NCBI GenBank assembly: GCA_964469155.1
Contig: CAYXXU010000009.1
Span: 2,494-66,493, forward strand
Length of the DNA stretch: 64,000 nucleotides
Direction: 5' to 3'
DNA from: an uncultured Bacteroidales bacterium
Lineage (GTDB): Bacteria > Bacteroidota > Bacteroidia > Bacteroidales > CAIWKO01
Shown: positions 22,811 through 48,863 of the stretch, piece by piece
Layout: every line of letters begins with the position of its first letter
Numbering within the stretch: the first letter of the stretch is position 1
Position numbers and translations under genes: made by a program
The notes under the pieces: model-generated
Told to the model about the DNA's origin: nothing
What the model saw: only the letters and a program-made list of their open reading frames with translations
Databases searched by the model: none

Positions 22811-22995
22811 ATTATTATACTCCAAATGGAATAATGTATTAATTAATCTCCCAAAATGGAAGGATAAATACAAAGGTATAAAAAACAATTGTCACTCTAC
22901 TTTTTCCCCTTGTAACCGATTTCTTATCAGAAATAAAATTGGACGAAAACACATCGTCACCTTCAATAAAAAACATTTGTTCTCGGCAGAATCAT

Positions 22996-28755: not shown

Positions 28756-29393
28756 TGGCAATGAATGTTTTTATTGGGAATGATATTATTTGCATTAATA
28801 AAGAATCATATGAGAATAATTTTCAAAACTCTCTGCAATATTACAATAGGATTTCATCCAGTAAGGAACGGCTGTTAATGTCTTCCAAATACAATATTCT
28901 TATAAGGACACACATCATTTTTTCCATCAAAGAAGCCGCTTACAAAGTTATGTTAAAACTTGGATTTCAAAAAGCATTTTCACCCCGAAAATTCTTAATA
29001 GAGTCGATAGAAACTACAAATCATGATGGACACTTGATAGCAAGAGGGGTAATAAAATATGGAATCCAGGAACTTTTTTTTCAGTCTTTCTGTAATAAGT
29101 CTTATTCACACAGTATAGCATCCTCTCGAAAAATCTCATTTGACAAGGTAGATGTTGATATCCAAACATATAAAAATCTTAATCCAGACAATCAGACACA
29201 AACTGCAAAAGGACAACTCATCAAGCATTTACATAGTATCATTCCAGATTGTAGAGGAATAAATGTTATTAAAGACAATGTTGGCATACCGGTTCCGGTT
29301 CTTGGAAAACAAATAATACCTATTGAAGTGTCGTTAAGTCATGACGGGAATTATATTGCAAGCGTTGTTTATAATTCTAAAGAAAGTGAGTAA
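28755..29393 (+). CDS. 4'-phosphopantetheinyl transferase (AcpS-like)
   Basis: 212 aa. IGNDIICI, FSIKEAAYK, VSLSHDGNYIASV blocks. TGATG overlap with the ACP gene. Confidence 0.7.
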   Translation: MAMNVFIGNDIICINKESYENNFQNSLQYYNRISSSKERLLMSSKYNILIRTHIIFSIKEAAYKVMLKLGFQKAFSPRKFLIESIETTNHDGHLIARGVIKYGIQELFFQSFCNKSYSHSIASSRKISFDKVDVDIQTYKNLNPDNQTQTAKGQLIKHLHSIIPDCRGINVIKDNVGIPVPVLGKQIIPIEVSLSHDGNYIASVVYNSKESE

Positions 29394-30348
29394 GCCAGAA
29401 TTAAGCATTGGAATAATAACTTATAATCAGGGAGTTTTTTTAAAAAGAACTATCGATTCCGTTCTGGAACAACAGACAACATACTCCATAGAAATTATTA
29501 TTTGTGATGATGCTTCAGAAGATAATACAGAAGCAATAGTACAAATTTTTCAGAGAGAACATCCCAAAATCATACAGTATTATAAAAACAACACCCGCCA
29601 GGGCCCACTTTTAAATGGAAAACAGTTATGGAGCCATGCAGGGGGAAAATACTTATGCTGGATTGATGCAGACGATTATTGGTGTTATTATGGTAAAATA
29701 CAAACTCAACTTGATTTTCTGGAAAATAATCCTGAATATGCCGGATGTTTTCACGATGCCCAAATCTTAAGCGATATTGATTCTGAGGCAAACATCGCGG
29801 AACAATTAAAAATTCAAACACACGGTCAATGGAAAAGCTATTCGCAGTTCAATACTTATTCCGCCGATTTTTTCCCATGGGACGTATTACAAAGGAAAAT
29901 CATTCCAACCGCTTCATTGGTTTTCCGAAGAAAAAATTTCGAAGCCTTTTTTGAACTTTTTTCCAATGTTGGTCTTTCTATCAGTTGGGCCCTGCATCTG
30001 GAGATCATTAAAAACAGTAAGTTCAAATATTTTAATGAGGCGTGGTCGGTGTATTTTGATCATGAAAAAGGATTTTCTAAAAGCGTAGATCTGTTGACTT
30101 TTAAACTCAATAATATCCGGATTTTACTGAAACTGCTTGATGATGATTATTATAAAACTATCGTTAAGGATGTATATAAAGCAATAGCCAATGAGTACTT
30201 TTACCTGTTGCATTGCAGCGATTCGAAAAGATTAAGCAAAAAAGAATACTATTCATATTGCAAAGCTTATAAAAAATGGATGGAAAAAGCGATAGAAGCA
30301 GAAATTATTAGTTTTAAAGAGTCGATTATTAATCACCGGGAACAATAG
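29386..30348 (+). CDS. glycosyltransferase family 2
   Basis: The start is uncertain: GTG at 29386, or the track ATG at 29341 which overlaps the PPTase gene. LSIGIITYNQG...ICDDASEDNT and WIDADDYW (DxD) are typical of GT-A/GT2. Confidence 0.8.
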   Translation: MSKPELSIGIITYNQGVFLKRTIDSVLEQQTTYSIEIIICDDASEDNTEAIVQIFQREHPKIIQYYKNNTRQGPLLNGKQLWSHAGGKYLCWIDADDYWCYYGKIQTQLDFLENNPEYAGCFHDAQILSDIDSEANIAEQLKIQTHGQWKSYSQFNTYSADFFPWDVLQRKIIPTASLVFRRKNFEAFFELFSNVGLSISWALHLEIIKNSKFKYFNEAWSVYFDHEKGFSKSVDLLTFKLNNIRILLKLLDDDYYKTIVKDVYKAIANEYFYLLHCSDSKRLSKKEYYSYCKAYKKWMEKAIEAEIISFKESIINHREQ

Positions 30349-30350
30349 GC

Positions 30351-32138
30351 ATGTGTGGAATCATAGGGAAGATAGATCACCGGCACGGGGTTCAAATTGA
30401 AGAATTTGTTTTACAAAGGGATTCAATGTTTTTACGTGGTCCTGATGATAAAGGGTTTTACTTTGATGCGGATAAAAAAATAGCTTTAGGCTATCGCAGG
30501 CTTTCGATAGTAGATCTGAGTCCCCAGGCTAACCAGCCGATGTCAAACGAAGATGAAACTCTTTTTCTGGTTTGCAACGGAGAAATATATAATTCGCCTG
30601 TTATACGGCAAATGCTTTTACATGCCGGACATACTTTTAAAAGCAAATCGGATTGCGAGGTAATATTGCATGGTTATGAAGAATGGGGCGTTGATGTTTT
30701 GAAAAGAATTGATGGCATGTTTGCTATGGGATTATGGGATGCTACGAAACAGGAATTATTGATCGCCCGCGACCGGTTTGGAATTAAACCCCTCTATTAT
30801 GAAAACAATGATGGATGCTTTACTTTTGCCTCCTCCTTGCAGGCAATTGGCTGCAGATCGGGCCATGGTAAAGAACTTTCATTGGATGCGATCTGCGATT
30901 ATCTCACATATCGTTACGTCCCCTCTCCGAAAACAATTTACAAAAATGTCGAAAAGCTTGAACCTGCTCATTATTTAATTTACGATAGAAACTCTAAAAC
31001 CAGGATCGGATGTTATTGGAATCTGCAATATAATCCCGTCATAGCAGATGATGAGGAGATACAAAAGGAATGTCAGATTTTGCTAAACAAATCTATTCAA
31101 TCACATTTACGAAGTGATGTGCCGGTGGGTTGTTTTTTAAGCGGAGGATATGATTCTACAGTGCTGGCTATGCTTATGAGAAAGCAAGACTACAATCCAA
31201 TTACCTTTAGTATTGGATTTGAGGGGTGGGAAGGCAGCGAGCTCAATCAGGCAATAATTACAGCCCAACAGCTGGATCTTTCAAATCAGTGTTCAATTTT
31301 AAACAAGGAAGACTTTATCACAGACGATATTATTTCTGCTTATGATGAGCCCATAGCAGATATCTCAATAATCCCCACTTTTGCTATAAGCCATTTAGCT
31401 TCCAGGAGTGTTAAAACAGTTTTTTCAGGTGAAGGAGCTGATGAACTTTTTGGAGGTTATGATTGGCATCATGAACTCTTTAAACAATATTCGAACAAAA
31501 CATTTATTGCTAAAGTCCTGACTCAAAAAAGAAAACTATCTCTTGGGGTTTATTCACAATTTATGGCGATGGGAGCGTTTGAAACGAATTCGCTTCGTCA
31601 ATTATTCCATACTCAATTCCATAATCACATTCCCGGTGATAGTTTTTGGTTCTATAAAAGACACTTTAACTCTGATCTGCCCATACCCAAATGTTTACAA
31701 TACCTGGATATAAAAACCTTTATGACGGAATTGGTTCTGACAAAAGTCGACAGGGCCTCCATGGCAAATTCGCTTGAAGTAAGAGTCCCTTATCTTGACA
31801 AAACGCTGTTTGAATTTGTTTTCAATCTTCCTCCTGAAAAATATTTTGATCCGCAATCCCAAAAACCATTGTTGGCAAATATATTGAGACCCATTTTGGG
31901 TGATGATTTTCTGAATCGCAAAAAGCAGGGCTTTGTTGGTCCTGATGCTTTTTATGATCATTTTGAGATGTATAAACTCATAATGGACGATTCGGTTTTA
32001 ATTGACCAGGGGATTATGAATCGAAAATATATTGACACCCTATTAACCTGTAAAGACCGCTGGCGACTATGGAAAATTGTAATTTTGGAGTTATGGGTTC
32101 AAAAAAACCGGAACAATATTAATCTTCCCACAGCATGA
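30351..32138 (+). CDS. asnB: asparagine synthase (glutamine-hydrolysing)
   Basis: 595 aa. MCGIIG N-terminal Cys nucleophile, LSGGYDST PP-loop, FSGEGADELFGGY. Confidence 0.9.
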   Translation: MCGIIGKIDHRHGVQIEEFVLQRDSMFLRGPDDKGFYFDADKKIALGYRRLSIVDLSPQANQPMSNEDETLFLVCNGEIYNSPVIRQMLLHAGHTFKSKSDCEVILHGYEEWGVDVLKRIDGMFAMGLWDATKQELLIARDRFGIKPLYYENNDGCFTFASSLQAIGCRSGHGKELSLDAICDYLTYRYVPSPKTIYKNVEKLEPAHYLIYDRNSKTRIGCYWNLQYNPVIADDEEIQKECQILLNKSIQSHLRSDVPVGCFLSGGYDSTVLAMLMRKQDYNPITFSIGFEGWEGSELNQAIITAQQLDLSNQCSILNKEDFITDDIISAYDEPIADISIIPTFAISHLASRSVKTVFSGEGADELFGGYDWHHELFKQYSNKTFIAKVLTQKRKLSLGVYSQFMAMGAFETNSLRQLFHTQFHNHIPGDSFWFYKRHFNSDLPIPKCLQYLDIKTFMTELVLTKVDRASMANSLEVRVPYLDKTLFEFVFNLPPEKYFDPQSQKPLLANILRPILGDDFLNRKKQGFVGPDAFYDHFEMYKLIMDDSVLIDQGIMNRKYIDTLLTCKDRWRLWKIVILELWVQKNRNNINLPTA

Positions 32139-33547
32139 ATACTTTTTCGCTGAAAGCGCTGATGAGAAAAAGAGGATACAGGAAATTTAACCTGAGCAGG
32201 ACTATTGTTCAATCCGAAAGGCTCTGTCATGCGCCTTTTAAAAGTCTGTTGTTTACCCAAAGCGGTGCTATAATGGTCTGTCATTTCAACAGAGGATATG
32301 TATTGGGAAATTATCCGGCGAATTCAATAAATGAAATTTTAGAGAGTGCGTCATTACAAAAACTGCAAAAACAACACAATTTCTATAACTTTCCGGAAAG
32401 CTGTCAATATTGCAAGATTGAAATTGAGAACCAACGTTATTATAACGCAGGGTGCAAAAAATATGATTATTTGGCAGAATATGGTAAACCGGAGGAAATT
32501 GTATCGCTGGAATTTCAGACGTCAAATGCCTGTAATCTCGAATGCATTATGTGCAGCGGAGAGTATTCCTCACTTATCAGAAAAAACAGAGAATGCGGAG
32601 TGGAATATCCGGATCCATATGATGATGTCTTTATTGAACAAATTAAACCTCTTTTAAGGTCAGTTAAATTTGCCAGCTTCACGGGTGGTGAGCCTTTTTT
32701 AAATCCTTTGTACTACAAAATATGGAAATTGATTGTTGAAATTAACCCACAAATAAAAATTACTATTTCGACCAATGGAACCCTATTAAATGATAAAATT
32801 AAAGAACTCTTTAATGCGCTTACTATTGATCTCACGCTTTCAATCGATTCTCTTGACAAAAAAACCTATGGTCAAATTCGAAAAAATGCCGATTTTGATA
32901 AGACCTTTGAAAATATCCAATATTTTATTGAAGTATCTAAGGCAAAACAAAGACTTTTTTCGATAAAATTTGTCATCATGAAGGGAAACATACAAGATGT
33001 TCCTGAACTTTTTGAATACTTTAATGAACAGAATGTTCAGATATATCCCAAGCTGGTATGGGTTCCTGTTGACCTGTCTCTTCGTTATGGAACTTCAGAG
33101 GAATTGAAGGAATGGATATATATATTGAAGCGGTGTCATTTAAACCGGAAACTGGAATATCAAAAGTTTAATTGTGAACGCTATTCTGAAATAATTTCTA
33201 CTTTGGAAAAATGGGAAGAAGAGCTGGCCCTGTTCACAAAAGAAAAACTAATACTTCTCACAACAGAGGATCTTACCGGTAAATTACATGAATTGTTGTG
33301 CAATTTTGTAAACAATGATTCCATGATTGAATACGACAAAAGAATTAAGTTGTTGAATTTTGCAGAGGAACTACTACATTTTATTACCCGTAGTAATATA
33401 CCAGAAAAAGAAATGCAAAATTTTCTAGCCTATTTACTCAGTCTTCCCAGATATTTGCTGGTGAACGAATTTTACAGAATGAATGCGGAAAAATTCGTGA
33501 ACAGGTTAAAAGTTAAAAAGTCTTTCAATAAGAACAGAACATGTTAA
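32135..33547 (+). CDS. radical SAM protein with N-terminal twitch/SPASM-like Cys motif (family copy 3 of 9)
   Basis: 470 aa. CHAPFKSLLFTQSGAIMVC, SCQYC, TSNACNLECIMC, TGGEPFL, STNGT, LSIDS. ATGA overlap with asnB. Confidence 0.9.
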   Translation: MNTFSLKALMRKRGYRKFNLSRTIVQSERLCHAPFKSLLFTQSGAIMVCHFNRGYVLGNYPANSINEILESASLQKLQKQHNFYNFPESCQYCKIEIENQRYYNAGCKKYDYLAEYGKPEEIVSLEFQTSNACNLECIMCSGEYSSLIRKNRECGVEYPDPYDDVFIEQIKPLLRSVKFASFTGGEPFLNPLYYKIWKLIVEINPQIKITISTNGTLLNDKIKELFNALTIDLTLSIDSLDKKTYGQIRKNADFDKTFENIQYFIEVSKAKQRLFSIKFVIMKGNIQDVPELFEYFNEQNVQIYPKLVWVPVDLSLRYGTSEELKEWIYILKRCHLNRKLEYQKFNCERYSEIISTLEKWEEELALFTKEKLILLTTEDLTGKLHELLCNFVNNDSMIEYDKRIKLLNFAEELLHFITRSNIPEKEMQNFLAYLLSLPRYLLVNEFYRMNAEKFVNRLKVKKSFNKNRTC

Positions 33548-34863
33548 AAATAAAAGACATATTCCACTTTGGACAAAACAAGGCTTATATAAAATGTAAT
33601 GCGGCCGAAAAAAGTTTGCGTTTTGGCATTGGGGGAAGAGTTTCTGTCTGTTGTCATAACCACAAGGACATTGTTGGGAGTATTCCACAAAATTCCATTA
33701 TGGAAATATGGCATGGACCCGCAATAAAATCTTTGAGACATACACTTCAAAAAAAATATTCTCAGGGTTGTACCTATTGCATTCATGAAGGGCAATCAGT
33801 ACATTCTTCGGGAAGTTCGGCCCTTTACGAACGTTATGAATCAAATCCCGTTCATCCTGTCATCTTGGATTTCAAGGCCGACAACTCATGCAATTTAGCC
33901 TGTATTATGTGTTCCGGGCTTTCTTCAACAGGTTTGAGAGCAAAGGAAAGCAAGTGCACTATGAACCCATACGACAACAATAAATTTCTCAGTGAACTTC
34001 AGGAAATCATACCCTTTATTAATGAAGCCCGTTTCAGTGGCGGAGAGCCGTTCTTATCAGAATTGTACTTTAAGATATGGGAAAGCATTATTCAGAAGAA
34101 TCCCCAATGCAAAATTGTTGTACAAACCAATGGGACAATTCTTAACCCAAAAGTCAGGGATATAATGGAAAGAGGGAATTTCAATATCAATTTATCTATT
34201 GATTCATTTCAAAAAGACACTTACGAAAAAATAAGACGCGGCGGTTCATTTGATATCATTTTAAAAAACATCAGCTATTTTAAAGAATATTGTCTGGGCC
34301 AATCCAGATTCTGGGGTATGACCAGTTGTGCAATGATTGAAAATAGTGCCGAATTTTCAGATATCATAAATAACTGGAATCTTCACCAGGCAAACGGATG
34401 GTTTAGCGTGGTGTGGTTTCCACCAAAAAACGCAATATGGACATTAAGCGAAATGGAAATTGAAAAAATTTCAGAACAGCTCAATAATATTAGTTTTATT
34501 GGTGATGCCGAATACTTAATCAACAATTCGCGGGCGTTGGAGATACTGAAAACCATGATGAAGCAGCAATTGAAGCTTTCGAAACTTCATCATGATCCAC
34601 CTGTATCAATTGATGGCGAGGCTTTTTATACAACGGTAACAGATTATTTTTCGAAAGTGCTAAAACAAACAATAGAATTTCAGCAAATCGAAACTAAGCT
34701 TCAACAATACTTTTCACAAAATGGAGATTCCTTATATAACGCGACGAGTTTTAAAAAAATTCGTAACTTTACCTCAGAAGAACATTTTTTCGACTTATTA
34801 TCAATGATTGATAAAGAAAGTATATCCGAATTGTTCTTTCCTTTTGTAACAAAACATAAATGA
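33541..34863 (+). CDS. radical SAM protein with N-terminal twitch/SPASM-like Cys motif (family copy 4 of 9)
   Basis: 440 aa. CNAAEKSLRFGIGGRVSVCC, GCTYC, ADNSCNLACIMC, SGGEPFL, QTNGT, LSIDS, AIWTLS. 7-nt overlap with the upstream gene. Confidence 0.9.
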   Translation: MLKIKDIFHFGQNKAYIKCNAAEKSLRFGIGGRVSVCCHNHKDIVGSIPQNSIMEIWHGPAIKSLRHTLQKKYSQGCTYCIHEGQSVHSSGSSALYERYESNPVHPVILDFKADNSCNLACIMCSGLSSTGLRAKESKCTMNPYDNNKFLSELQEIIPFINEARFSGGEPFLSELYFKIWESIIQKNPQCKIVVQTNGTILNPKVRDIMERGNFNINLSIDSFQKDTYEKIRRGGSFDIILKNISYFKEYCLGQSRFWGMTSCAMIENSAEFSDIINNWNLHQANGWFSVVWFPPKNAIWTLSEMEIEKISEQLNNISFIGDAEYLINNSRALEILKTMMKQQLKLSKLHHDPPVSIDGEAFYTTVTDYFSKVLKQTIEFQQIETKLQQYFSQNGDSLYNATSFKKIRNFTSEEHFFDLLSMIDKESISELFFPFVTKHK

Positions 34864-36329
34864 ATACCGGCATAAAACATTTCGCGGCAAAAGCCATAGG
34901 TATCCTCAACAGATTTCGTTTTATGGCATCCCATGGTATAAAGGATGATGGAACTTATAACCCGCTTCCCGGCAAAGTAATTCACGATTTTAACAAAACC
35001 CGTATGCTGGGTCCTCAAAAATGGTTATGCTATGCTCCGTTTAATATGATCTACTTTGCATTTAACGGAGAAATGATTGCCTGTTGTCACAACCGCAAAC
35101 ATATTATGGGCAGATACCCTGAACAAAGCATTGAAGACATATGGGGTGGTGCCAAATATGAAATACTTCGGGAACACATTCGTCATAACGATCTGTCATA
35201 TGGTTGTGATGTTTGTAAAAACGCACTGATTGCAGGGAATTACGATGGCGCTAAAAATGGTCTCTATGACAGATATGGTAGTCGTAGCTATCCTCAAATC
35301 ATGGAATTCGAACTTGACAACCTATGCAACCTTGCCTGCGTTATTTGCAATGATAATTTTAGTTCCGGCATAAAACCACTGGAATTAAAGACTCAGAACC
35401 CATCTCCCTATGATGCTGAGTTTGTAAAACAAATTACTCCTTACATTCCAAAATTGAAAGAAGCAAAATTTTATGGTGGCGAACCGTTTTTAATTAATTT
35501 ATATTATAACATCTGGGAGAAGATGCTGGAAATGAATCCTAAAATAGAAATTCTTATCCAGACAAATGGAACCGTTCTTAACGAAAAAGTAATAAAATTA
35601 CTTGAAAGAGGAAGATTTAATATAAACATATCGATAGACTCATTACATAAAGAGAATTTTGAAAAGATCCGTAAAAATGCCAATTTTGAAGAGACAATGG
35701 AAAATGTTGCTTTTTTCATAGATTACTGTAAACAGAAGGGGACTCACCTAGGGATCATTCCCACTCCCAACCGATTAAACTGGCAGGATATACCTGAAAT
35801 AACGAATTGGGCAACTTCAATTGGTGCCAAAGTCTATTTCAATACGCTGATCACCCCTCTTGAATTGGCATTATGGAACCTTCCACAGAAAGATATTGAA
35901 ACCATTTACAGCCAATTATCCGCTAAAGATATCCAAACCATAGGACTGGCTGGAAAAGAAAATGCCAGACATTATAAGGATTTTTTACATCAAATACAGG
36001 GGTGGAAGGTAAACAAAACCATCACAGAAAACGCTAAAACGAAAATTAGTCTTTTTGATCTTAAACAAATGAAAGATAAGTTTATTCTGGAACTCAGCAA
36101 AACCTTACATGAGAAAGAAAGGGATGAACTCATGCTGCTTTTTGAACAAACACTTTCTTCATTTGACGAAAATATAAACCATGATCTGTTTTTTGCTGTT
36201 ATCAGAAAAGTACCCATTGAAATTGTAGTTAAAGAAATTCAAAAAAGAGATCTTGAACACTTAAAAAAAAATATGGGAAAAAAAATATATGAAGGTAGTG
36301 TGGAATATGAAATAATTCGGGTTAATTAA
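34860..36329 (+). CDS. radical SAM protein with N-terminal twitch/SPASM-like Cys motif (family copy 5 of 9)
   Basis: 489 aa. C57-x12-G-x4-C75 (CYAPFNMIYFAFNGEMIAC), C116-x2-C119, then C156-x3-C160-x2-C163 (CNLACVIC), YGGEPFL, QTNGT, ISIDS, LALWNL. Confidence 0.9.
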   Translation: MNTGIKHFAAKAIGILNRFRFMASHGIKDDGTYNPLPGKVIHDFNKTRMLGPQKWLCYAPFNMIYFAFNGEMIACCHNRKHIMGRYPEQSIEDIWGGAKYEILREHIRHNDLSYGCDVCKNALIAGNYDGAKNGLYDRYGSRSYPQIMEFELDNLCNLACVICNDNFSSGIKPLELKTQNPSPYDAEFVKQITPYIPKLKEAKFYGGEPFLINLYYNIWEKMLEMNPKIEILIQTNGTVLNEKVIKLLERGRFNINISIDSLHKENFEKIRKNANFEETMENVAFFIDYCKQKGTHLGIIPTPNRLNWQDIPEITNWATSIGAKVYFNTLITPLELALWNLPQKDIETIYSQLSAKDIQTIGLAGKENARHYKDFLHQIQGWKVNKTITENAKTKISLFDLKQMKDKFILELSKTLHEKERDELMLLFEQTLSSFDENINHDLFFAVIRKVPIEIVVKEIQKRDLEHLKKNMGKKIYEGSVEYEIIRVN

Positions 36330-36330
36330 T

Positions 36331-37716
36331 ATGAACGCATTTGCAACAAAAATTGATAACTGGGTTAACCAAATAGCACGATGGTCCAATCCCTTTCATA
36401 AGGATATATTTTGCAAAGCTCCTTTCAATACCCTTTTTTTTTCAATGACAGGTGATGTATATTTTTGCTTAAGTAATCGTATTCAAATTGCAGGTAAATA
36501 TCCCCAAAATTCTATCAAGGATATTATTGAAGGGCAAATGGTTCAGGACCTAAGAAAATATTTTACAGAACACAATGGAATGCCCGGCTGTGAGTATTGT
36601 AAAGAACAAATTGATCTGGGGAATTATGACGCAGCATTCAATCATTACAGCAATGTCAGAAGCAAAAAGGGAGAGATTTCTGTAATAGAGTTTGAATTAT
36701 CTAACCGTTGCAACCTTCAATGTATGATGTGCAGTGAACAATATTCTTCAATACACCAGGGGAATAGCAAAAACGTAAAGATCCCCTACGATGATCAATT
36801 TATATTTCAGATTGCCCCATACCTTAAAAACCTGAAAAAAGCCAGTTTTAGAGGAGGAGAACCCTTCCTTATTCCAATTTATTACAAATTATGGGATAAG
36901 TTATTAGAGCAGAATAAAAGCGTAGCCATTGGAATTACTACTAACGGAACCATTTATAATTCGAAGATAGAAACCTATCTCCAAAGCCGTCAATTTCAAA
37001 TCAACATATCTGTTGATACTTTGCAAAAAGAGTCCTTCCAGGCAATTAGGGTTAATGGAGAATTTGATCAATATTTAAAAAATATTATGACCTTTCTTGA
37101 GTTGTCAAAAAAAGGAGTTTGCGGTCTGAGTATCTGTACATGCCTTATGGTTAACAACTGGAAAGAAATACCTTCCATATTTAGTTTTTGCAATGAAAAC
37201 AGATTGACAATCCATATTAATTATGTAGAATATCCTTTAAATGTTTCTATACAGAGTTTGCTGCCAAATGAGATTGAAGCTATTATATCATATTTGAAGG
37301 ACCATAAAAATATTAATGATTACAACATTACAATTTACGATTCGATATTGTCTATTTTGAAGTCATGGGTAAATAACAGAAAACCAAACACAAAAACAAA
37401 TATAAGTGATATTGTCAATTCAATTTTACCAATGACCATTAGCCTTTCAGAACTTCACCAACAAAAGCAAAGTTTTTTTAATAAAATTGAATTATATTCT
37501 CATTCACAACAGTCAGTTGATTTGTTAGAAAAATTTGAAAAACTCGAAAAACATTTTAAAAACGCTAATGACATTTTTTTTCTTTATTTCATATTGGATC
37601 ATATCCCTGAAAAAATTGTAATCGACAACATCAGTCATTTTTCAGTTGAAAACCTAATAATTGAATCTGAAGAGTTGATTGAAATCAGCAAACAAAAATT
37701 TTCAATAAATGGCTAA
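36331..37716 (+). CDS. radical SAM protein with N-terminal twitch/SPASM-like Cys motif (family copy 6 of 9)
   Basis: 461 aa. CKAPFNTLFFSMTGDVYFC, GCEYC, SNRCNLQCMMC, RGGEPFL, TTNGT, ISVDT. Confidence 0.9.
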   Translation: MNAFATKIDNWVNQIARWSNPFHKDIFCKAPFNTLFFSMTGDVYFCLSNRIQIAGKYPQNSIKDIIEGQMVQDLRKYFTEHNGMPGCEYCKEQIDLGNYDAAFNHYSNVRSKKGEISVIEFELSNRCNLQCMMCSEQYSSIHQGNSKNVKIPYDDQFIFQIAPYLKNLKKASFRGGEPFLIPIYYKLWDKLLEQNKSVAIGITTNGTIYNSKIETYLQSRQFQINISVDTLQKESFQAIRVNGEFDQYLKNIMTFLELSKKGVCGLSICTCLMVNNWKEIPSIFSFCNENRLTIHINYVEYPLNVSIQSLLPNEIEAIISYLKDHKNINDYNITIYDSILSILKSWVNNRKPNTKTNISDIVNSILPMTISLSELHQQKQSFFNKIELYSHSQQSVDLLEKFEKLEKHFKNANDIFFLYFILDHIPEKIVIDNISHFSVENLIIESEELIEISKQKFSING

Positions 37717-39160
37717 AAAGATAGTAGAAAAGATATCGCATTTATTTAATTCAAAAACAAAACGTCCCTTGCCTCTCTGTTATGCTCCGTTCAATAATTT
37801 ATTGATCGATCAGCAAGGCTGTATAAAAATTTGCTGTCATAACATATCATATATTTTAGGTAGATTTCCTATTGACAGAATTAATGATGTCTGGTTTGGC
37901 AAAATGCGACAATCTATAACAAATCAATTCCTTTTTGATGAAACTCCCGATTCGTGTAATAGTTGCATAAAGAACGGTTTAAATATTGACTTGTTGAGCA
38001 CCAAAACAGCATACTCAAAAAGAAAAAATTTAATCAATTTCAATCAATATCCTTATCAAATTGATTTTTTACTTGACAATAATTGCAATCTGGATTGTAT
38101 AATGTGTTCTTCAAACATATCCACTTCTTCAACTAATACTGATGTATATGCTCTTGAAAAAGTTAATTTCAATGAAGATTTTTTCACTCAAATAAAACCA
38201 TTTCTTGAAAAAGGACGTTTTTTCGTTTTTGGGGGTGGCGAACCTTTTCTCATTCAAATCTATTCAAAGATGTGGAAGTATATTTATGAAAAAAATTCTT
38301 CTGCAACGATCTATGTTCAAACCAATGGAACTATTCTAACTGACCAAATAAAGAAAACCATTGAAAAATATAAAATAAATATTGGAATCTCTATTGATTC
38401 GGTTAATAAGGAAAATTATGAAAAGATAAGAAGAAATGCTTCTTTTGAGAAAACGTTCGAAAATATCGAATATTTCATACAATACTCTGATTCGCAAAAG
38501 AAAAACATGACTCTAATGGTCACACCTATGATCATAAATGCAGATGAAATACCACATATTTTTGAATATGCCAACAATAATAACCTTCATTTCTCATTAA
38601 GTATACTAGACAGGCCTGTTCATTTGGCCATATGGTCACTGCCTTCAAAAGAGATTTTTAAACTGATAGATAAATACAAATCTTTTAAGTTTTTGACTGA
38701 TAGTTCTCAGAATCTGATAAAAAACAATATTAAGGCATTTCAGATTTTTATTTTACTTGTTGAAAAATATGCCCGGCGAAAAGTTTTCATTGAACAACAT
38801 CAACAAAAGATATTATCGCAAATCATTAAACTATCAGAGTATTTTGCTGAAAATTATGAGACAATACTTAAATTCAGTATTGAAAATTCATCCATTGAAA
38901 AATATAAAAAAGAGGCTTTTCATAATCGCGCCAAAGATTTAATTAATCAATTGATTGAAAAAAACGCCACCCTATTCGATAACAAACTCTATTTGTATTC
39001 ATATTTTATCAACAAAGAAATGAGTTCGTTTGTCAACAATCTTATTAATTTTGACGACTATACTATAAGCCAATTTTTTCAGGAAAAAATTTATGAGCAT
39101 AAGATATTTTTTGACACCCTTTCCTATGATCATATAATTGATTTGGATTATTATGAGTGA
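37709..39160 (+). CDS. radical SAM protein with N-terminal twitch/SPASM-like Cys motif (family copy 7 of 9)
   Basis: 483 aa. CYAPFNNLLIDQQGCIKICC, SCNSC, DNNCNLDCIMC, GGGEPFL, QTNGT, ISIDS, LAIWSL. 8-nt overlap with the upstream gene. Confidence 0.9.
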   Translation: MAKKIVEKISHLFNSKTKRPLPLCYAPFNNLLIDQQGCIKICCHNISYILGRFPIDRINDVWFGKMRQSITNQFLFDETPDSCNSCIKNGLNIDLLSTKTAYSKRKNLINFNQYPYQIDFLLDNNCNLDCIMCSSNISTSSTNTDVYALEKVNFNEDFFTQIKPFLEKGRFFVFGGGEPFLIQIYSKMWKYIYEKNSSATIYVQTNGTILTDQIKKTIEKYKINIGISIDSVNKENYEKIRRNASFEKTFENIEYFIQYSDSQKKNMTLMVTPMIINADEIPHIFEYANNNNLHFSLSILDRPVHLAIWSLPSKEIFKLIDKYKSFKFLTDSSQNLIKNNIKAFQIFILLVEKYARRKVFIEQHQQKILSQIIKLSEYFAENYETILKFSIENSSIEKYKKEAFHNRAKDLINQLIEKNATLFDNKLYLYSYFINKEMSSFVNNLINFDDYTISQFFQEKIYEHKIFFDTLSYDHIIDLDYYE

Positions 39161-40640
39161 ACTGTTATCCTCCTTTAAAAAATGGTTACTGGTTGTTATT
39201 CGCTTCTATAGAAAAAGTGCTGTCACACCTACAAATATTATAGAGGAATCTTTACAAAGACAATACAGTGAATATAATGTACAACGCTTTTATGGCCCTC
39301 AAAAATATTTTTGTTATGCTCCTTTTGGGAGTATGTTCATTAGCTATAGTGGCAGGGTGTCACCATGTTATGCCTGTAAAAATGAGGAATCGCTTCAAAG
39401 CAGGTCTTTAGATGAAATCTGGAATGGCCCTGTTTTTTCTGAACTGAGAAATCAATTTAAAACCGGAATCGTTCCGGAAGCCTGTTCTTTCTGCAAGGAC
39501 CATCTGCTTCAAAAAAACTATGGAAGTATTTTAGCCAACAAATATGACCACTATCTTTTATCGGCCGTTGGCAATCCGGTAATTGCCGAACTGGAATTAT
39601 CAAACCTATGCAACCTGGAATGCATTATGTGTTCTGGAAACCTTTCATCGGGCATACGGAAAAACAGGGAACAGTTGCCCCCTGTTATAAACCAACTCCC
39701 CGCAGATTTTATTCATCAGTTCGAAAAGTTTATTCCCAAACTAAAAACCATTGAATTGACAGGGGGCGACCCCTTCCTTATAGATGAATACTACCAGATA
39801 TTAAATGAAATTGAGCGATCAAATCCCAAAATTGAGGTGTTAATAACTACCAATGCAAATACCATAACCCCGAAAACGGAGGCATTATTAAAAAAAAGAC
39901 TCCTTTTAAGCTTTAATATATCCATCGATTCCCTGGATGAAATCATTTATGCCGAAATCCGCCGCAAAGGATCACTCAAAACCGTCATGAGAAACATTGA
40001 GTATTTTTCGGAATACACAAAAAAGAATAACACATCACTTGGGTTTTTAGTATGTCCGCTGAAACAGAACTGGAAAGAACTTCCATCGTTTGTTGATTTT
40101 GCCAATAAATATCATGCGACACTTAGTTATCATGTAGTTTTCAAACCTTCAGAGCATGCTTTATGGTCATATTCTTCAGCAACATTACATGAAATTTATC
40201 TCTACTTAGCGTCCTTTTCATTTATAGGTAATGATTTTAACAGCAATATCAATGCCCGCAGTTATAATGCACTGGTAATTTTAATAGAATCATGGTATAA
40301 GAAGGCGATTACACGGGAAGCAAAATATCAAAATCTGATATTTGATTTGCAAAAACAGGTTGAGGGAGCTAAAAGATCTTTGCGAACCAACTTAAACGAT
40401 GATTACCTGTTCCATAAAATCGAAAAGACTATAGGCTTATTAAATATTTCTGAATTCCCCGAATTGGTTTTTCTTGAATTATATAAGAAAACAAAAACGG
40501 AAATAGAAGAGGGATTAAGGCAATTTTCGGATGAAGAATTAATTCGAAAACTGCAACTTTATCATCAGGAGCAATATTCTGCTTACTTTTATGACTTACA
40601 ACTGAGTGATAACGATAAATATTTAAACAATTCCCTGTAA
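39153..40640 (+). CDS. radical SAM protein with N-terminal twitch/SPASM-like Cys motif (family copy 8 of 9)
   Basis: I prefer the ATG at 39153 (MSELLSSF) to the track start at 39138. CYAPFGSMFISYSGRVSPC, ACSFC, SNLCNLECIMC, TGGDPFL, TTNAN, ISIDS, HALWSY. Confidence 0.9.
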   Translation: MSELLSSFKKWLLVVIRFYRKSAVTPTNIIEESLQRQYSEYNVQRFYGPQKYFCYAPFGSMFISYSGRVSPCYACKNEESLQSRSLDEIWNGPVFSELRNQFKTGIVPEACSFCKDHLLQKNYGSILANKYDHYLLSAVGNPVIAELELSNLCNLECIMCSGNLSSGIRKNREQLPPVINQLPADFIHQFEKFIPKLKTIELTGGDPFLIDEYYQILNEIERSNPKIEVLITTNANTITPKTEALLKKRLLLSFNISIDSLDEIIYAEIRRKGSLKTVMRNIEYFSEYTKKNNTSLGFLVCPLKQNWKELPSFVDFANKYHATLSYHVVFKPSEHALWSYSSATLHEIYLYLASFSFIGNDFNSNINARSYNALVILIESWYKKAITREAKYQNLIFDLQKQVEGAKRSLRTNLNDDYLFHKIEKTIGLLNISEFPELVFLELYKKTKTEIEEGLRQFSDEELIRKLQLYHQEQYSAYFYDLQLSDNDKYLNNSL

Positions 40641-40644
40641 GTCC

Positions 40645-41847
40645 ATGAAAAAGGAAAATGGATTCGTATATGTTGTTTGCGGAGGCGATAAACACATCAA
40701 TACTCTTAATACGTCAATAAAATATCTAAAGAGATTTTCGAAAAATAAAATAATCGTTATTACTGATTCTTCCCGAAACCAAATCAAAATAGCACATGAT
40801 TTAATTATTGACATTAAAACCGATTCGAAATACACCCACCATCAGGCGGCTATTTTTCTGAAAACATCGGTTCACAAATATCTTGACATGGATAATGCCT
40901 TGTATTGTTATCTGGATTCTGATGTGATCGCTTTATCAGAAGAAGTGGATGAAGTTTTTAACCAGACTTTTGACACCATAGGATTTTGTCCGGACAATAT
41001 TACTTTTGATTATTTTAGTCCTTATGCCATGAATTGCAGCTGCATTGATGAAAGTATCCAAAACCGGGAAAAATTGATGCGCACCTCTGAAGAATATGAT
41101 AAATTGCATGGGGAATGGTCCTCGTTTATAAAAGAAAATGGTGGAACTGTTTTAAATGACAAACTTGAAAAAATAAAAAAACCGTTGCCTGAAAACTGGG
41201 GGAAACTTGTCTGGTTCCAAATTCAGAAAACATTGCCATTTTGTAAAACCATCCGTCTGTTTGATCATCTTATGGATAAAAAAAGTAAACAATGGAAAAA
41301 CAAAGAGGGAAAGGTGGTTCTTTATCCTGTTGAATCGTATGAAAGTTTTATCCATAGCCACACCGGGTTTGTTTATCACAAAAATGATAACTTTTGGAGC
41401 AAGGCAGACGACCCATATGATGTTACCATTCCGCGTTGTGGGCATTTGCATAAAGCCATCAGCGAGACATTTGGGGTAAATATTTCTCCTGTATACTGGC
41501 AACATCCTAATGGGGGGGTATTTTTATTTGATGCAGGGTCGTCTGATTTTCTGAACTTTTGGCATGAAAATACCATAGAGATATTCAGTAACTCAACATG
41601 GAAAATCAGGGATCAGGGAACATTAGCTTATGCTTTCTGGAATTTTTCGCTTCAAAAAAGATCATATCTCCCCAAAGAATTTAATTTTATTGCGGACTAT
41701 TATTCGAAAAACTCAGTTCTTGATTATGATGGAACTTTTAATATTAATGGGAGAAAAATCAAACCCCATTTTATTCACATATTTCATCACTGGGACGACA
41801 AAGATTGGCCTGTATGGAACTCTATTCTTTCATTTTTACATAAATAG
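40645..41847 (+). CDS. hypothetical protein, possible GT-A fold nucleotide-sugar transferase
   Basis: 400 aa. N-terminal FVYVVCGGDKHINTLNTSIKYLKRFS...IIVITD and YCYLDSDVIAL (DxD-like) resemble GT8-like/GT-A enzymes. The rest is unrecognised. It sits inside the rSAM array with 4-nt and 1-nt gaps. Confidence 0.35.
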   Translation: MKKENGFVYVVCGGDKHINTLNTSIKYLKRFSKNKIIVITDSSRNQIKIAHDLIIDIKTDSKYTHHQAAIFLKTSVHKYLDMDNALYCYLDSDVIALSEEVDEVFNQTFDTIGFCPDNITFDYFSPYAMNCSCIDESIQNREKLMRTSEEYDKLHGEWSSFIKENGGTVLNDKLEKIKKPLPENWGKLVWFQIQKTLPFCKTIRLFDHLMDKKSKQWKNKEGKVVLYPVESYESFIHSHTGFVYHKNDNFWSKADDPYDVTIPRCGHLHKAISETFGVNISPVYWQHPNGGVFLFDAGSSDFLNFWHENTIEIFSNSTWKIRDQGTLAYAFWNFSLQKRSYLPKEFNFIADYYSKNSVLDYDGTFNINGRKIKPHFIHIFHHWDDKDWPVWNSILSFLHK

Positions 41848-41848
41848 A

Positions 41849-43372
41849 ATGAACAATATCTCGGGAAAAATACTTTACTCATCGGCAAAGGCCGTGAATC
41901 ATTTCAGAAGTGTCTTTTATAAAAAATACAGCCCAATTGGTGAAAATAAATCCCTTGAAAAAGAACGCATCCATTACTACAATAAACATCGGCCTTTTGG
42001 TCCATTACCCAAATTATGTTATGCTCCCTGGACCAATCTGTTTTTTAATACCGATGGCAAAGCATCTGTATGCTGCAAGAACACCAAAGTGCTTATGGGA
42101 GAATATCCAGCTTCTTCGATTCACGATATCTGGTTTAATTCGGGAGTGAATGATCTCAGAAAAAAAATTCAATGTAATGACGTTTCTTTTGGTTGTTATA
42201 AATGCAGGGATTCTATTACTCAGAAGAATTTTAGCACCTTAACTTCAACACAATTCGACAAATATGGATTATTTCCTCTGTCGAAATACCCTCGTATTAT
42301 TGAATTTGAACTAAGCAACCGTTGTAATTTGGAATGCATTATGTGTTCTGAAAGAGTTTCCTCGGCTATTGCATTGGCCAAGAACCAAAATCCTAATATC
42401 GAATCAAGATATGATCAGTCATTTATTCACCAACTTAAAGAGTTCATACCACATCTAGATAAAGCAAAGTTTTCAGGTGGTGAACCATTTTTAATACCTA
42501 TTTATTATAAAATTTGGGAAGAAATCATAAAACTGAATCCTTCAACAAAAATATTTGTGCAGACAAATGGTACGATCTTAAATGAAGAAATCAAAAAAAT
42601 GGTGCGTAAGCTTCATTTTCGTATAAATATATCACTTGATTCTGTCGATAAGAACAATTATGAATTTATTCGTAAAAATGCTAGTTTCGAATTAACCATG
42701 AGTAACATTGCCTGGTATGGAAAAAACACAACCCAACTTGGTATCCTTACAACTCCATTCCGGCAAAACTGGCATGACGTTCCTGATATTATCCGTTTTT
42801 GCAATAAAAACCAATATCATTTCAATATTAGTCCTGTTTATCAACCTAAAGAGTTGGCACTATGGAGTCTCGATATCAGATCACAAGACGAGATTATAAA
42901 TTTTTATCAATCAGAATCATTATCCTCAGGAAACTGGCTTGAAAAGAAGAATAAACAAGTTTTTCAGGAGTTAATCAATTCAATCAAAGATTGGAGAACC
43001 CGAAAAGTTCAGAATGATAACTTTGATCAGGATTTCACAAACAATATTGTTGAACAGGAAAAAGCAGAAGGTTTGCTTGTCAAGAAAAAATTCTCATTAC
43101 AAGCTATTAATCTTCTCATGAATGAATGTATTGAAAACTTAATAAAGACAGGTCTCTCATCTGAAGAAATAAATACATTAACATGTATGAGTGAAAATGT
43201 AAGAAAAGAACAATATCCGTCATTACCATCATTCTCCATCTACTTAAAGCTAAAAGAAATCAAGCCCACTGATATTTTGAATGTAATACGGACTACAGCT
43301 TCTGAGGGTATTTATAAGAAAATAGGATTGTTATATGAGTCAATAATTGAAGATTATGAAATTGACTATTAA
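41849..43372 (+). CDS. radical SAM protein with N-terminal twitch/SPASM-like Cys motif (family copy 9 of 9)
   Basis: I prefer the ATG at 41849 (MNNISGK); the track start at 41630 overlaps the upstream gene by 218 nt. CYAPWTNLFFNTDGKASVCC, GCYKC, SNRCNLECIMC, SGGEPFL, QTNGT, ISLDS, LALWSL. Confidence 0.9.
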   Translation: MNNISGKILYSSAKAVNHFRSVFYKKYSPIGENKSLEKERIHYYNKHRPFGPLPKLCYAPWTNLFFNTDGKASVCCKNTKVLMGEYPASSIHDIWFNSGVNDLRKKIQCNDVSFGCYKCRDSITQKNFSTLTSTQFDKYGLFPLSKYPRIIEFELSNRCNLECIMCSERVSSAIALAKNQNPNIESRYDQSFIHQLKEFIPHLDKAKFSGGEPFLIPIYYKIWEEIIKLNPSTKIFVQTNGTILNEEIKKMVRKLHFRINISLDSVDKNNYEFIRKNASFELTMSNIAWYGKNTTQLGILTTPFRQNWHDVPDIIRFCNKNQYHFNISPVYQPKELALWSLDIRSQDEIINFYQSESLSSGNWLEKKNKQVFQELINSIKDWRTRKVQNDNFDQDFTNNIVEQEKAEGLLVKKKFSLQAINLLMNECIENLIKTGLSSEEINTLTCMSENVRKEQYPSLPSFSIYLKLKEIKPTDILNVIRTTASEGIYKKIGLLYESIIEDYEIDY

Positions 43373-43420
43373 TTACTTGTGGTTATTATTTCCCCCAGAA
43401 CCAATTCTAAAATTATAAAG

Positions 43421-43930
43421 ATGAATATTATACTTATTGATGAAAAAGACAACATTACCGGATACAATGAAAAGTCATTGGTACATAGAGAGGGACTATT
43501 GCATAGGGCATTTTCCATTTTTATTCTTAATTCAAAAAAGGAGTTGTTGATTCAGCAAAGAAAACATGATAAATACCATTCCGGGGGATTATGGTCCAAT
43601 ACATGCTGCGGACATTTTACTTCAGGAATAGATATGGTAAAACAGGCCGAAAAACGTTTGCATGAAGAAATGGGAATTCATTGTCAGTTGAATTGGATTT
43701 TTAATTACAGATATTCCGTATTGCTTAATAATGGACTGAAAGAGAATGAACTTGTTTATGCTTATTCAGGATTTTGTGATGAAAATCCACTCCCTGATCG
43801 GGAGGAAGTTAATGATTGGAGGTGGGTGAATTTAATTAGTTTGAAGGAAGATCAGAATCAGAATCCCCAACAATATACATTTTGGTTTACCTACTCTTTT
43901 AATGATCTTTACAGTAATATTTATAAATAA
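43421..43930 (+). CDS. idi: isopentenyl-diphosphate delta-isomerase, type 1 (Nudix fold)
   Basis: I prefer the ATG at 43421 (MNIILIDEKD). LHRAFSIFILNSKKELLIQQRKHDKYHSGGLWSNTCCGH is the hallmark IDI-1 block, including the catalytic Cys context. Confidence 0.85.
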   Translation: MNIILIDEKDNITGYNEKSLVHREGLLHRAFSIFILNSKKELLIQQRKHDKYHSGGLWSNTCCGHFTSGIDMVKQAEKRLHEEMGIHCQLNWIFNYRYSVLLNNGLKENELVYAYSGFCDENPLPDREEVNDWRWVNLISLKEDQNQNPQQYTFWFTYSFNDLYSNIYK

Positions 43931-43952
43931 TAGGGGATATTATCCGGCACCA

Positions 43953-45176
43953 ATGATCTTTAAAAAAAAGAATACACATTTCATAGTTTTCAGTTCTCTA
44001 CTGATAATTTGTATTATAGCCCATGTGTTGTTTTTTATTATTTCCGGATCGTATTTGATCACCTCAGGTTTGTTTGTTATTATACTTATTTCTCTGTTAA
44101 TATATTATCTTATTGGTTTTTTATCATCCGTTTTTGGGTTGAAAAGGAAACTAAATGAAACGCGTCTTATTGTTTTTACGACAGCCATTTGTTTATGTAT
44201 TATTGAATTATTATTTGTGCTTACCGGTTATAAAAGCACTAGTGTGGAAAAAAGAAATCTTTTTTACTATTCTTCACAATATGATCCTGTTAAAACAAAA
44301 CGTTTTCATTTATGGAAAGAAGACCATCCCTTAAAGACAGCAGAATATTGCTATTACCGGACTTTAAATTCAGACAGCTTGTCAGATAAAGAACATGTTG
44401 TTGAAAAAAATATAAATGAATATAGAATTATAGGGTTAGGCGATTCATTTACTGAGGGAGATGGGACTGATGCTGATTCTACCTGGCTTAAATTTCTGGA
44501 AAGAAATGTTGCAATAAAATATCCTTTAAAAAAGCAGCTCACTTATTTTAATGCAGGTGTTTGTGGAAGTGACCCTTGTTTTGAATATATCCTACTAAGA
44601 GAAAGATTGTTGAAATATAATCCGGATTTGGTGATATTGGCCATTAATATTTCAGATATTAATGATGTTATTATACGCGGCGGAATGGAACGTTTTAAAC
44701 CGGATGGTAGTGTTCATTATAAGAATGCCCCCTGGTGGGAACCCCTTTATGCCATGAGCCATATTTCGCGTTTGTTTTTTTCAGGACTAGGCTATAACGA
44801 ACTTCTTTTTAAAGAAAATGAAAGTAATTTTAATAAGGCCAAACAGAAAATCACAGAGATAATTCTTATTTTTAAAGAATTTTCCGAAAGAAATCACTTT
44901 AAGCTAATTGTAATATTTCATCCTTATCAGGGGGAAATTAACACGAACCATTTGGAATTACATAATGTAATGGAAAAAGTTTCAGAAGAATACAAAATTG
45001 ATGTTTTGAACATGCCGGAATATTTCAAAGAAAAAGAAAAAATAAATTCTGCTAACAGTAGTGAATATTTCTGGAAGTATGATGGCCACCACAATGCAAA
45101 AGGTTATGCTGCCTTTGCCCGTGGCGTGGAGTGGAAATTAAAACAAATGGGAGTTATTGACTCCTTATCGAAATGA
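43953..45176 (+). CDS. membrane-anchored SGNH/GDSL hydrolase family protein
   Basis: I prefer the ATG at 43953. Three N-terminal TM segments, block I IIGLGDSFTEGDG, block V YDGHHNAKGY. Confidence 0.7.
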   Translation: MIFKKKNTHFIVFSSLLIICIIAHVLFFIISGSYLITSGLFVIILISLLIYYLIGFLSSVFGLKRKLNETRLIVFTTAICLCIIELLFVLTGYKSTSVEKRNLFYYSSQYDPVKTKRFHLWKEDHPLKTAEYCYYRTLNSDSLSDKEHVVEKNINEYRIIGLGDSFTEGDGTDADSTWLKFLERNVAIKYPLKKQLTYFNAGVCGSDPCFEYILLRERLLKYNPDLVILAINISDINDVIIRGGMERFKPDGSVHYKNAPWWEPLYAMSHISRLFFSGLGYNELLFKENESNFNKAKQKITEIILIFKEFSERNHFKLIVIFHPYQGEINTNHLELHNVMEKVSEEYKIDVLNMPEYFKEKEKINSANSSEYFWKYDGHHNAKGYAAFARGVEWKLKQMGVIDSLSK

Positions 45177-48711: not shown

Positions 48712-48863
48712 TTGTGTCTGTATGAAAGCCTCAGCTACTTCGTTGTTCTTGTCTTTCAAATCAGTCATTTACAATAGTAAACTCCTGATCTTCAATCCTA
48801 CGAAGCGCCTCATATTTGAGCCTTTCATTTCAGCCACAGAATAATGTTCTCAACAAAAAACCC

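Follow-up and report, generated by a model that had tools for sequence, protein, structure and literature searches.

Whether the auxiliary-cluster domain of a radical S-adenosylmethionine (SAM) enzyme can stand ahead of its catalytic barrel, and what such an enzyme would then do, is the question raised by a 64,000-nt stretch of DNA from an uncultured Bacteroidales bacterium (assembly GCA_964469155.1, contig CAYXXU010000009.1, positions 2,494-66,493 of the forward strand; hereafter the window). SPASM and twitch domains are described as C-terminal extensions (PMC9012708; PMC9477430). The exemplar gene studied here, at 34860-36329, encodes a protein whose first four conserved cysteines precede the SAM-cluster motif, and it is one of nine such paralogs in the window. 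Our results indicate that this N-terminal module is a twitch domain, a true homolog of that of BtrN, and they support, at the sequence level, the view that the classical core-then-twitch order has been rearranged as in a circular permutation.

The interval that first drew attention, 35028-35348, corresponds to codons 57 to 163 of the exemplar open reading frame (ORF), and the cysteine pattern claimed for it was indeed read in the translation as C57-x12-G70-x4-C75(C76), C116-x2-C119 and then C156-x3-C160-x2-C163. In an alignment of 124 sequences that included database homologs, seven cysteines (C57, C75, C116, C119, C156, C160 and C163) and G70 were present throughout, C76 was a cysteine in 97 of the 124, every other column reached at most 63% cysteine, and no conserved cysteine was found downstream of the SAM motif. 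The SAM-binding GGE motif was likewise retained (G206 and G207 in 124/124, E208 in 122/124). The statement that the nine paralogs keep the four N-terminal cysteines also held, C57, C75, C116 and C119 being invariant in their own alignment together with G70, C156, C160 and C163. Spacing, on whose conservation in homologs the sequence-only reading had made its proposal depend, proved equally stable: of the 120 best homologs, 118 had the full motif, and the remaining two are N-terminally truncated fragments on contigs shorter than 1.5 kb. C75 and C116 were separated by 40 residues in 109 of these 118, and the stretch between the CxxC and the SAM motif was 36-39 residues long in most members and 56-66 in one subgroup of related loci. 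Because motif and spacing are retained at about 30% overall identity, the conservation of the seven cysteines lies far beyond chance and the observation is confirmed.

Several lines of evidence identify the module that carries the first four cysteines. Its first element fits the CX9-15GX4C signature that opens SPASM and twitch domains, as had been suggested, with C57-x12-G70-x4-C75 invariant and spanning a modelled hairpin. In line with this, the profile searches that had been called for placed the Pfam SPASM domain (PF13186) above its gathering score at the N-terminus of eight of the nine paralogs, with Radical_SAM (PF04055) downstream and scoring 48.8-72.9 bits in all nine against a gathering score of 29.5; the product of 37709-39160 was the sole paralog with no Pfam SPASM match at E<=0.01, all four cysteines nonetheless being kept. 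In the exemplar, PF13186 covers residues 57-119 (34.8 bits against 21.5 for gathering) and PF04055 residues 155-317. When PDB sequences were searched with phmmer, BtrN was the best match (E 4.5e-8), exemplar residues 55-122 aligning to BtrN 167-235 with C57/C169, G70/G182, C75/C187 and C119/C232 paired and the x12/x4 spacing identical. The 2013 study of Goldman et al. reportedly identified C169, C187, C232 and C235 as the four ligands of the auxiliary [4Fe-4S] cluster of BtrN.

The predicted structure agrees with this assignment. A full-length AlphaFold2 model of the exemplar, built from the 124-sequence alignment, reached a mean predicted local distance difference test score (pLDDT) of 93.8 and a predicted template modelling score (pTM) of 0.89, the latter denoting a confident predicted placement of the twitch and nothing more. 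Pfam and the model together give the order as twitch (residues 55-124) upstream and radical SAM core (147-354) downstream, with a linker of about 25 residues between them. The modelled twitch comprises a beta-hairpin (63-66/71-73) with G70 at its turn, helices 91-95 and 98-108, and a helix 117-124 at whose start C116 and C119 are found. The core is a (beta/alpha)6 fold with strands 147-150, 201-204, 230-235, 252-257, 297-299 and 323-324, the second of them ahead of the GGE motif (G206-G207-E208), and a variable helical domain of about 130 residues forms the C-terminus. Because Foldseek aligned only the core of the full model (to BlsE, SkfB, viperins, SuiB, anSME, MoaA and GDGT-MAS), residues 48-134 were modelled alone (pLDDT 93, pTM 0.80). 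The top PDB matches of this domain-only model were the BtrN structures 4m7s and 4m7t (probability 1.0, query-normalised TM-score 0.60-0.63, root-mean-square deviation 2.0-2.6 Å over 64-69 columns, 25-31% identity), after which came weak matches, namely the auxiliary domains in PqqE, SuiB and CteB.

These data also bear on the possibility that the N-terminal cysteines bind zinc, in a zinc ribbon such as the sequence-only reading had named, or merely stabilise the fold, with no second Fe-S cluster. A set of four cysteines in two pairs is in principle able to bind zinc; the module is, however, homologous to the twitch of BtrN, shares its C-x12-G-x4-C spacing and matches PF13186 above the gathering threshold, C57 and C75 lie 17 residues apart across a hairpin and not in a CxxC knuckle, and the confident Foldseek matches are radical SAM auxiliary-cluster domains only, no zinc ribbon being among the matches of the domain-only model. 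A zinc ribbon was thus rejected on both homology (BtrN alignment) and fold (Foldseek), and we regard this alternative as very improbable. The module is, moreover, a twitch, with four cysteines, enough for one cluster, and not a full SPASM domain: ahead of the SAM motif the invariant cysteines are C57, C75, C116 and C119 only, and the CX2CX5CX3C segment of the seven-cysteine SPASM pattern is missing, PF13186 being matched because twitch and SPASM have their first half in common. Four invariant cysteines with no other conserved one fit a single auxiliary cluster.

The unusual domain order could be examined within the window itself. Two other radical SAM genes, cited earlier as examples of the usual order, do display it in Pfam: Radical_SAM 12-167 and SPASM 246-306 in the product of 24778-25890, and Radical_SAM 49-182 and SPASM 264-330 in that of 53472-54467. 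The latter served as comparator. Its cysteines are C264, C283/C284 and C327-x2-C330, plus an additional C271; its C-terminal residues 262-330 match positions 3-70 of the NCBIfam profile NF033640 (E 4.4e-15), and the exemplar twitch aligned onto its residues 263-328 (BLASTP E 4e-9). Compared with this protein, the native exemplar gave two order-swapped high-scoring segment pairs (HSPs), 56-122 to 263-329 and 142-292 to 41-185. The construct obtained by swapping the domains in silico, with the exemplar core (135-345) first and the twitch (48-134) second, gave one collinear HSP, 8-285 to 41-328, over 299 columns (E 1.3e-13). Because the swap merges the two HSPs into one, the permuted arrangement proposed from the order of the cysteines is borne out at the sequence level. 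In addition, the next-best NCBIfam matches of the exemplar core (TIGR04311, TIGR04317 and MoaA) are the families that the comparator most resembles.

A homologous twitch domain could also have been recruited independently, docking at a different place on the barrel and serving another purpose, such as intermolecular electron entry. The alignment of the core only in full-model Foldseek searches, and the extra C-terminal helical domain that classical twitch enzymes do not have, would accord with such a history. We nevertheless consider it unlikely, given that twitch and core alike have, as their closest relative of conventional order, one and the same type of enzyme (TIGR04317/TIGR04311-like), that the domain-swapped sequence is collinear with it over the whole HSP, that the pTM given above and a pLDDT above 90 over twitch, linker and core describe one confidently packed predicted unit, and that the linker between CxxC and SAM motif is tightly held in most members. 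As a separate observation, four related proteins of 870-981 aa (P0121, P0122, P0126 and P0128) consist of two complete N-terminal-twitch (N-twitch) units fused as twitch-core-twitch-core; such tandem fusions are classical intermediates of permutation by duplication, and read-through or assembly artefacts are also possible.

A family with this architecture, whose listing in NCBIfam the sequence-only reading had tentatively mentioned, does exist there as NF033640 (N_Twi_rSAM, product name 'twitch domain-containing radical SAM protein'). Each of the nine paralogs had it as top match (E 1e-39 to 1e-50), about positions 2-370 of its 398 being covered, and 21362-22888 was alone in exceeding its curated cut-off of 170 bits (173.0 bits). 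NCBI already uses the product name for homologs, among them a protein that shares 56% identity with 21362-22888, and the window genes are somewhat divergent members of this catalogued architecture. NF033640 carries no assigned function, in agreement with the sequence-only reading, and no publication on it was found; since NCBIfam names the architecture and no paper was found, it is catalogued but not characterised. Relatives are numerous: a profile of the nine paralogs retrieved 1,826 representatives (50%-identity clusters) at E<=1e-30 among 1.84 billion proteins, and at least 454 relatives were present among 600 pattern matches listed from a one-genome-per-species collection. The best 78 loci all came from metagenome-assembled genomes (MAGs), nearly all of Bacteroidota (Bacteroidales, Chitinophagales, Saprospiraceae and Flavobacteriales), with a few from Thermodesulfobacteriota, Planctomycetota, Bdellovibrionales/Pseudobdellovibrionaceae, Acidobacteria and Candidatus Delongbacteria.

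Within the window, the other paralogs are 27-34% identical to the exemplar, pairwise identity among the nine being at most 38%. Seven of them are co-directional and in tandem in one operon, and the other two are dispersed on the minus strand (Table 1). Each of the seven tandem genes has a one-to-one collinear ortholog in other Bacteroidales MAGs at 36-61% identity; for 39138-40640 this amounts to 58-61% in loci L002, L003, L019 and L048 and 48% in L029. Since orthologs are at 36-61% identity and paralogs at no more than 38%, the array is old and its members are not redundant. Some gene boundaries deserve comment. The gene at 39138-40640 may start at an alternative ATG at 39153, and the true start of 41630-43372 is probably the ATG at 41849, giving 507 aa, because the 5' part of the listed ORF overlaps 40645-41847 and the orthologs have 507-509 aa; this ATG falls one nucleotide past the upstream stop. 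The product of 21362-22888 has 482 aa in a public protein collection (sources NCBI and Logan), and that of 11126-12487 matches Pfam SPASM at residues 27-90 with 46.7 bits.

Table 1. Features of the window (coordinates in nt of the 64,000-nt stretch; L numbers denote related loci)
Feature	Coordinates	Strand	Size and remarks
Exemplar N-twitch radical SAM gene	34860-36329	+	489 aa; NF033640 E 2.8e-48, 165 bits
Exemplar twitch domain	35022-35231	+	about residues 55-124
Exemplar SAM-cluster motif C156-x3-C160-x2-C163	35325-35348	+	invariant in 124/124 aligned homologs
Paralog	32135-33547	+	470 aa; twitch segment 32198-32458; NF033640 E 4.6e-44; collinear ortholog in L029, L002
Paralog	33541-34863	+	440 aa; twitch segment 33577-33822; NF033640 E 2.5e-39; ortholog in L029/L002
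Paralog	36331-37716	+	461 aa; twitch segment 36388-36636; NF033640 E 7.7e-46; ortholog in L002/L003/L019
Paralog	37709-39160	+	483 aa; twitch segment 37763-38011; NF033640 E 8.1e-42
Paralog	39138-40640	+	500 aa from TTG; twitch segment 39285-39539; NF033640 E 1e-43
Paralog	41630-43372	+	listed ORF 580 aa; twitch segment 41990-42250; NF033640 E 1.8e-48
Dispersed paralog	11126-12487	-	453 aa; twitch segment 12173-12436; NF033640 E 7.1e-40
Dispersed paralog	21362-22888	-	listed ORF 508 aa; twitch segment 22472-22726; NF033640 173 bits
Comparator, conventional radical SAM with C-terminal twitch-like domain	53472-54467	-	not in array
B12-binding radical SAM gene	6338-7861	+	class-B methylase-like
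B12-binding radical SAM gene	9673-11043	+	class-B methylase-like
B12-binding radical SAM gene	15149-16510	+	class-B methylase-like
B12-binding radical SAM gene	16994-18436	+	class-B methylase-like
Conserved protein within array	40645-41847	+	400 aa; at same position in every orthologous array
UbiA-family prenyltransferase	19358-20209	-	18 nt upstream of small conventional radical SAM gene 18441-19340 (-)
Type-1 isopentenyl-diphosphate isomerase	43379-43930	+	137 bits against NCBIfam cut-off 127; directly after last N-twitch gene
Polytopic membrane protein	12462-14762	-	766 aa; 3' end overlaps start of 11126-12487 by 26 nt

The surroundings of these genes form a large glycoconjugate-type cluster. 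Assembly and export are represented by GT4, GT2, GT9 and DXD glycosyltransferases and by a Wzm/Wzt-type ABC-2 permease and ATPase, sugar amination and acylation by a DegT aminotransferase, a PglD-like acetyltransferase and a cassette of SDR, FabA-like, KAS and acyl carrier protein (ACP) genes, and amidation and prenylation by two AsnB-like genes and one UbiA prenyltransferase; a type-1 isopentenyl diphosphate (IPP) isomerase, a GDSL protein and a carbamoyltransferase with an SxtJ-like partner complete the tailoring genes. Sixteen radical SAM genes lie in these 64 kb, namely nine N-twitch, four B12-binding and three others; one small radical SAM gene and one radical SAM/SPASM gene belong to the cluster. 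The B12-binding genes gave sub-threshold matches to BchE, PhpK, HpnJ and 'lipid biosynthesis B12/rSAM' TIGR04072. Intergenic gaps in the operon 29341-45176 range from -53 to +6 nt. The protein encoded by 40645-41847, embedded in the array, had no Pfam or NCBIfam match, and a PDB profile search gave only a chance-level match to an acyl carrier protein; its invariant motifs are CYxDxD and NGGxFxF (alignment A4), and the DxD and NGG motifs suggest that it may be a GT-A/GT8 glycosyltransferase.

Neighbours were also counted within ±10 kb of 79 related loci, which hold one to nine N-twitch copies each. The array-embedded 400-aa protein was the most frequent (29 of the 79 loci), followed by UbiA (27), CMAS-like methyltransferases (21), AsnB-like amidotransferases (20), DXD glycosyltransferases (19), 2-oxoglutarate oxygenases (19; best NCBIfam match 'sporadic carbohydrate cluster', far below cut-off), GDSL proteins (18), Wzt (17), B12-binding radical SAM proteins (14), Wzm (12), carbamoyltransferases (11), the WbuX sugar amidotransferase (8), and the PMT_2/TPR GT-C glycosyltransferase and sulfotransferases (7 each). 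The Wzm/Wzt pair accompanies members from outside Bacteroidota too. Four distinct proteins of 800-872 aa from other metagenomes (P0055, P0166, P0211 and P0335) are fusions of UbiA with an N-twitch radical SAM enzyme, and locus L001 (10001-12550) is listed alongside them.

Further observations concern individual neighbours. In L080, the single locus whose genes were read one after another, the place of the isomerase behind the final N-twitch gene of the orthologous array is taken by a DXD glycosyltransferase; a 212-aa ORF that follows the ACP cassette in the window and has no family of its own has an ortholog in L080 with a weak match to ACPS (phosphopantetheinyl transferase). The polytopic membrane protein of 12462-14762 matched no family and did not resemble the PMT_2/TPR GT-C proteins encoded in related loci. 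A NodU/CmcH-type carbamoyltransferase gene at 46687-48555 (+) is followed at 48816-49217 (+) by that of a small membrane protein matching Pfam SxtJ, named after the partner of the carbamoyltransferase SxtI in the saxitoxin operon. A 144-aa ORF at 20642-21076 (+), the only one in the 1.1 kb that separate UbiA from 21362-22888, encodes a hexapeptide-repeat (left-handed beta-helix, LbH) acyltransferase; the PglD-like gene 24182-24781 may have here a second copy in truncated form. Outside the biosynthetic cluster, two tandem paralogous TonB-dependent receptors with an N-terminal CarboxypepD_reg domain (56692-59091 and 59391-61811, both -) and a protein with a C-terminal sorting domain of the type IX secretion system (63026-63961, -) are typical Bacteroidota markers, which fits the taxonomic origin of the related loci.

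Taken together, we consider it probable that these are N-twitch enzymes with a predicted auxiliary [4Fe-4S] cluster which tailor lipid-linked glycoconjugate intermediates, each paralog carrying out a distinct step. The four invariant N-terminal cysteines would fully ligate the auxiliary cluster, the substrate radical would arise by hydrogen-atom abstraction by the 5'-deoxyadenosyl radical, and the auxiliary cluster would accept or return the electron of this substrate radical, as proposed for BtrN. Electron relay by the auxiliary cluster has indeed been proposed for BtrN, SuiB and PqqE (PMC9012708). As four cysteines leave no open Fe site, binding of the substrate by the cluster is unlikely and electron relay is the more probable role. 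The outcome would be a redox-type tailoring, for example the oxidation of an alcohol to a ketone or an epimerisation. As the gene context suggests, the substrates may be lipid-linked glycoconjugate intermediates built by the neighbouring glycosyltransferases, and the finished glycoconjugate may be exported by the Wzm/Wzt-type ABC-2 transporter, the anciently diverged, collinear paralogs presumably each performing its own step. The UbiA fusions suggest that at least some members act on membrane-anchored, prenyl-linked species.

The same fusions open a second possibility, in which the auxiliary cluster is as described above and the substrate is an isoprenoid or prenylated lipid produced by UbiA, the radical chemistry being a cyclisation, cross-linking or desaturation and the sugar being added by other genes. 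Four independent UbiA fusions, the presence of UbiA genes in about a third of the related loci (27/79), the UbiA gene and the IPP isomerase of the window, the latter above its NCBIfam cut-off, and the co-occurrence of CMAS-like methyltransferases (weak matches to GPP C-methyltransferase and cyclopropane synthase), PhyH-type oxygenases and B12-binding radical SAM methylases all speak for it. On the other side, the UbiA domains match no characterised subfamily (best NCBIfam 26-36 bits), 52 of the 79 loci have no UbiA within ±10 kb, and the commonest partners overall are glycan-type genes with Wzm/Wzt, so that we judge this second possibility rather unlikely. UbiA enzymes can make polyprenyl-phospho-sugar donors, as established for the mycobacterial DPPR synthase, and donors of this kind would fold the isoprenoid alternative into the glycoconjugate explanation. 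An assignment of these UbiA proteins to a subfamily, DPPR synthase in particular, was tried and dropped on the same low scores.

Most characterised SPASM/twitch enzymes are maturases of peptides that are made on the ribosome and then modified post-translationally (RiPPs), and the paralogs gave many sub-threshold NCBIfam matches to peptide maturases such as WgkB, GggB and YhhB, and an AsnB-like protein (7881-9635) weakly matches a lasso-peptide cyclase. A peptide substrate is nonetheless hardly to be expected, because the arrays lack a conserved small ORF in their company: among ORFs of 25-99 aa, none formed a family conserved over the 79 related loci, no RiPP recognition element (RRE)/PqqD domain was found in the nine paralogs by Pfam, and glycan-assembly and export genes dominate the context. 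With neither a conserved small ORF nor an RRE, the RiPP reading was rejected.

Several points weigh against the explanation by glycoconjugate tailoring that we prefer. Its substrate assignment is guilt by association, and the UbiA fusions, the IDI gene and the CMAS-like methyltransferases point equally to an isoprenoid moiety. Because the members come almost all from uncultured MAGs, the cluster cannot be paired with any glycan or lipid of known identity. As regards the domain itself, eight of the nine paralogs score below the NF033640 cut-off (165.0 bits for the exemplar, 135.5-165.6 for the others), and the HMMER alignment shifts the CxxC by three residues relative to C232/C235 of BtrN, an offset of one turn at the end of the alignment. 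In full-text literature searches, neither N-terminal twitch or SPASM domains nor NF033640 were the subject of any paper, and none linked UbiA, radical SAM, O-antigen and carbamoyltransferase.

As for significance, the architecture itself was already known, being catalogued by NCBIfam; what is new here is its confirmation at the level of the fold, the explicit permutation test, the conservation of the collinear array and the recurrent link with Wzm/Wzt and UbiA. The role of SPASM/twitch auxiliary clusters is still debated, and a twitch-first family makes it possible to ask independently which features of the mutual geometry of the two clusters are indispensable. The 16 radical SAM genes, the collinear array, the UbiA fusions and the glycan-export neighbours point to an unexplored pathway in uncultured Bacteroidota, in which a glycoconjugate or glycolipid of the cell surface would be tailored in several radical steps. 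On a more speculative level, the arrays of five to nine N-twitch enzymes, with their B12-binding radical SAM proteins, UbiA, glycosyltransferases and Wzm/Wzt, might specify an undescribed radical-tailored (poly)prenyl-linked glycolipid or glycan of uncultured Bacteroidota, each paralog performing a distinct and possibly new C-H functionalisation and the permuted twitch being an adaptation to a membrane-anchored substrate; we put this forward tentatively and hold it to be rather doubtful as a whole.

Among known systems, the closest in architecture is NF033640 itself, with the twitch first and the core second as in all nine paralogs, although the window proteins run about 80-110 residues past the profile as a helical C-terminal domain. 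BtrN, the 2-deoxy-scyllo-inosamine dehydrogenase of butirosin biosynthesis (4M7S/4M7T), has the same twitch fold, with C-x12-G-x4-C followed by CxxC, and a carbohydrate-derived substrate; its twitch, however, comes after the core and not ahead of it, and the C-terminal helical domain of the exemplar is missing. The barrel of BtrN is reported by Goldman et al. in 2013 to be abridged, whereas the exemplar core has six predicted beta strands. Four cysteines ligate the auxiliary cluster of BtrN, which has been proposed to accept an electron during a two-electron oxidation (PMC9012708). TIGR04317/TIGR04311-like enzymes such as the comparator 53472-54467 have both domains homologous to those of the exemplar; they differ in the opposite domain order, and the comparator is only about 22% identical to the exemplar, lies outside the gene cluster and stops straight after the CxxC. 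MoaA (GTP 3',8-cyclase) likewise combines the core with a single-cluster twitch and is among the best core matches in both sequence and fold. In MoaA, however, the twitch is C-terminal and its cluster has three cysteine ligands and an open Fe site for the substrate (PMC9012708), whereas the four invariant cysteines of the window family argue against such ligation. The SPASM enzymes anSME, PqqE, SuiB and CteB have in common with the window family the opening CX9-15GX4C hairpin and the match to PF13186, but SPASM domains carry seven or eight cysteines and two auxiliary clusters, C-terminal to the barrel (PMC9477430), and the window family four invariant cysteines in an N-terminal domain. Finally, BlsE was the best Foldseek match to the exemplar core (7vob, E 6e-8), and viperins were in the top ten (E 3e-7 to 1.4e-6) beside the peptide maturases SkfB and SuiB; at 13-17% identity over the core only, these matches are uninformative on twitch placement or specificity, while the sugar and nucleotide substrates of BlsE and viperin are compatible with the glycan context.

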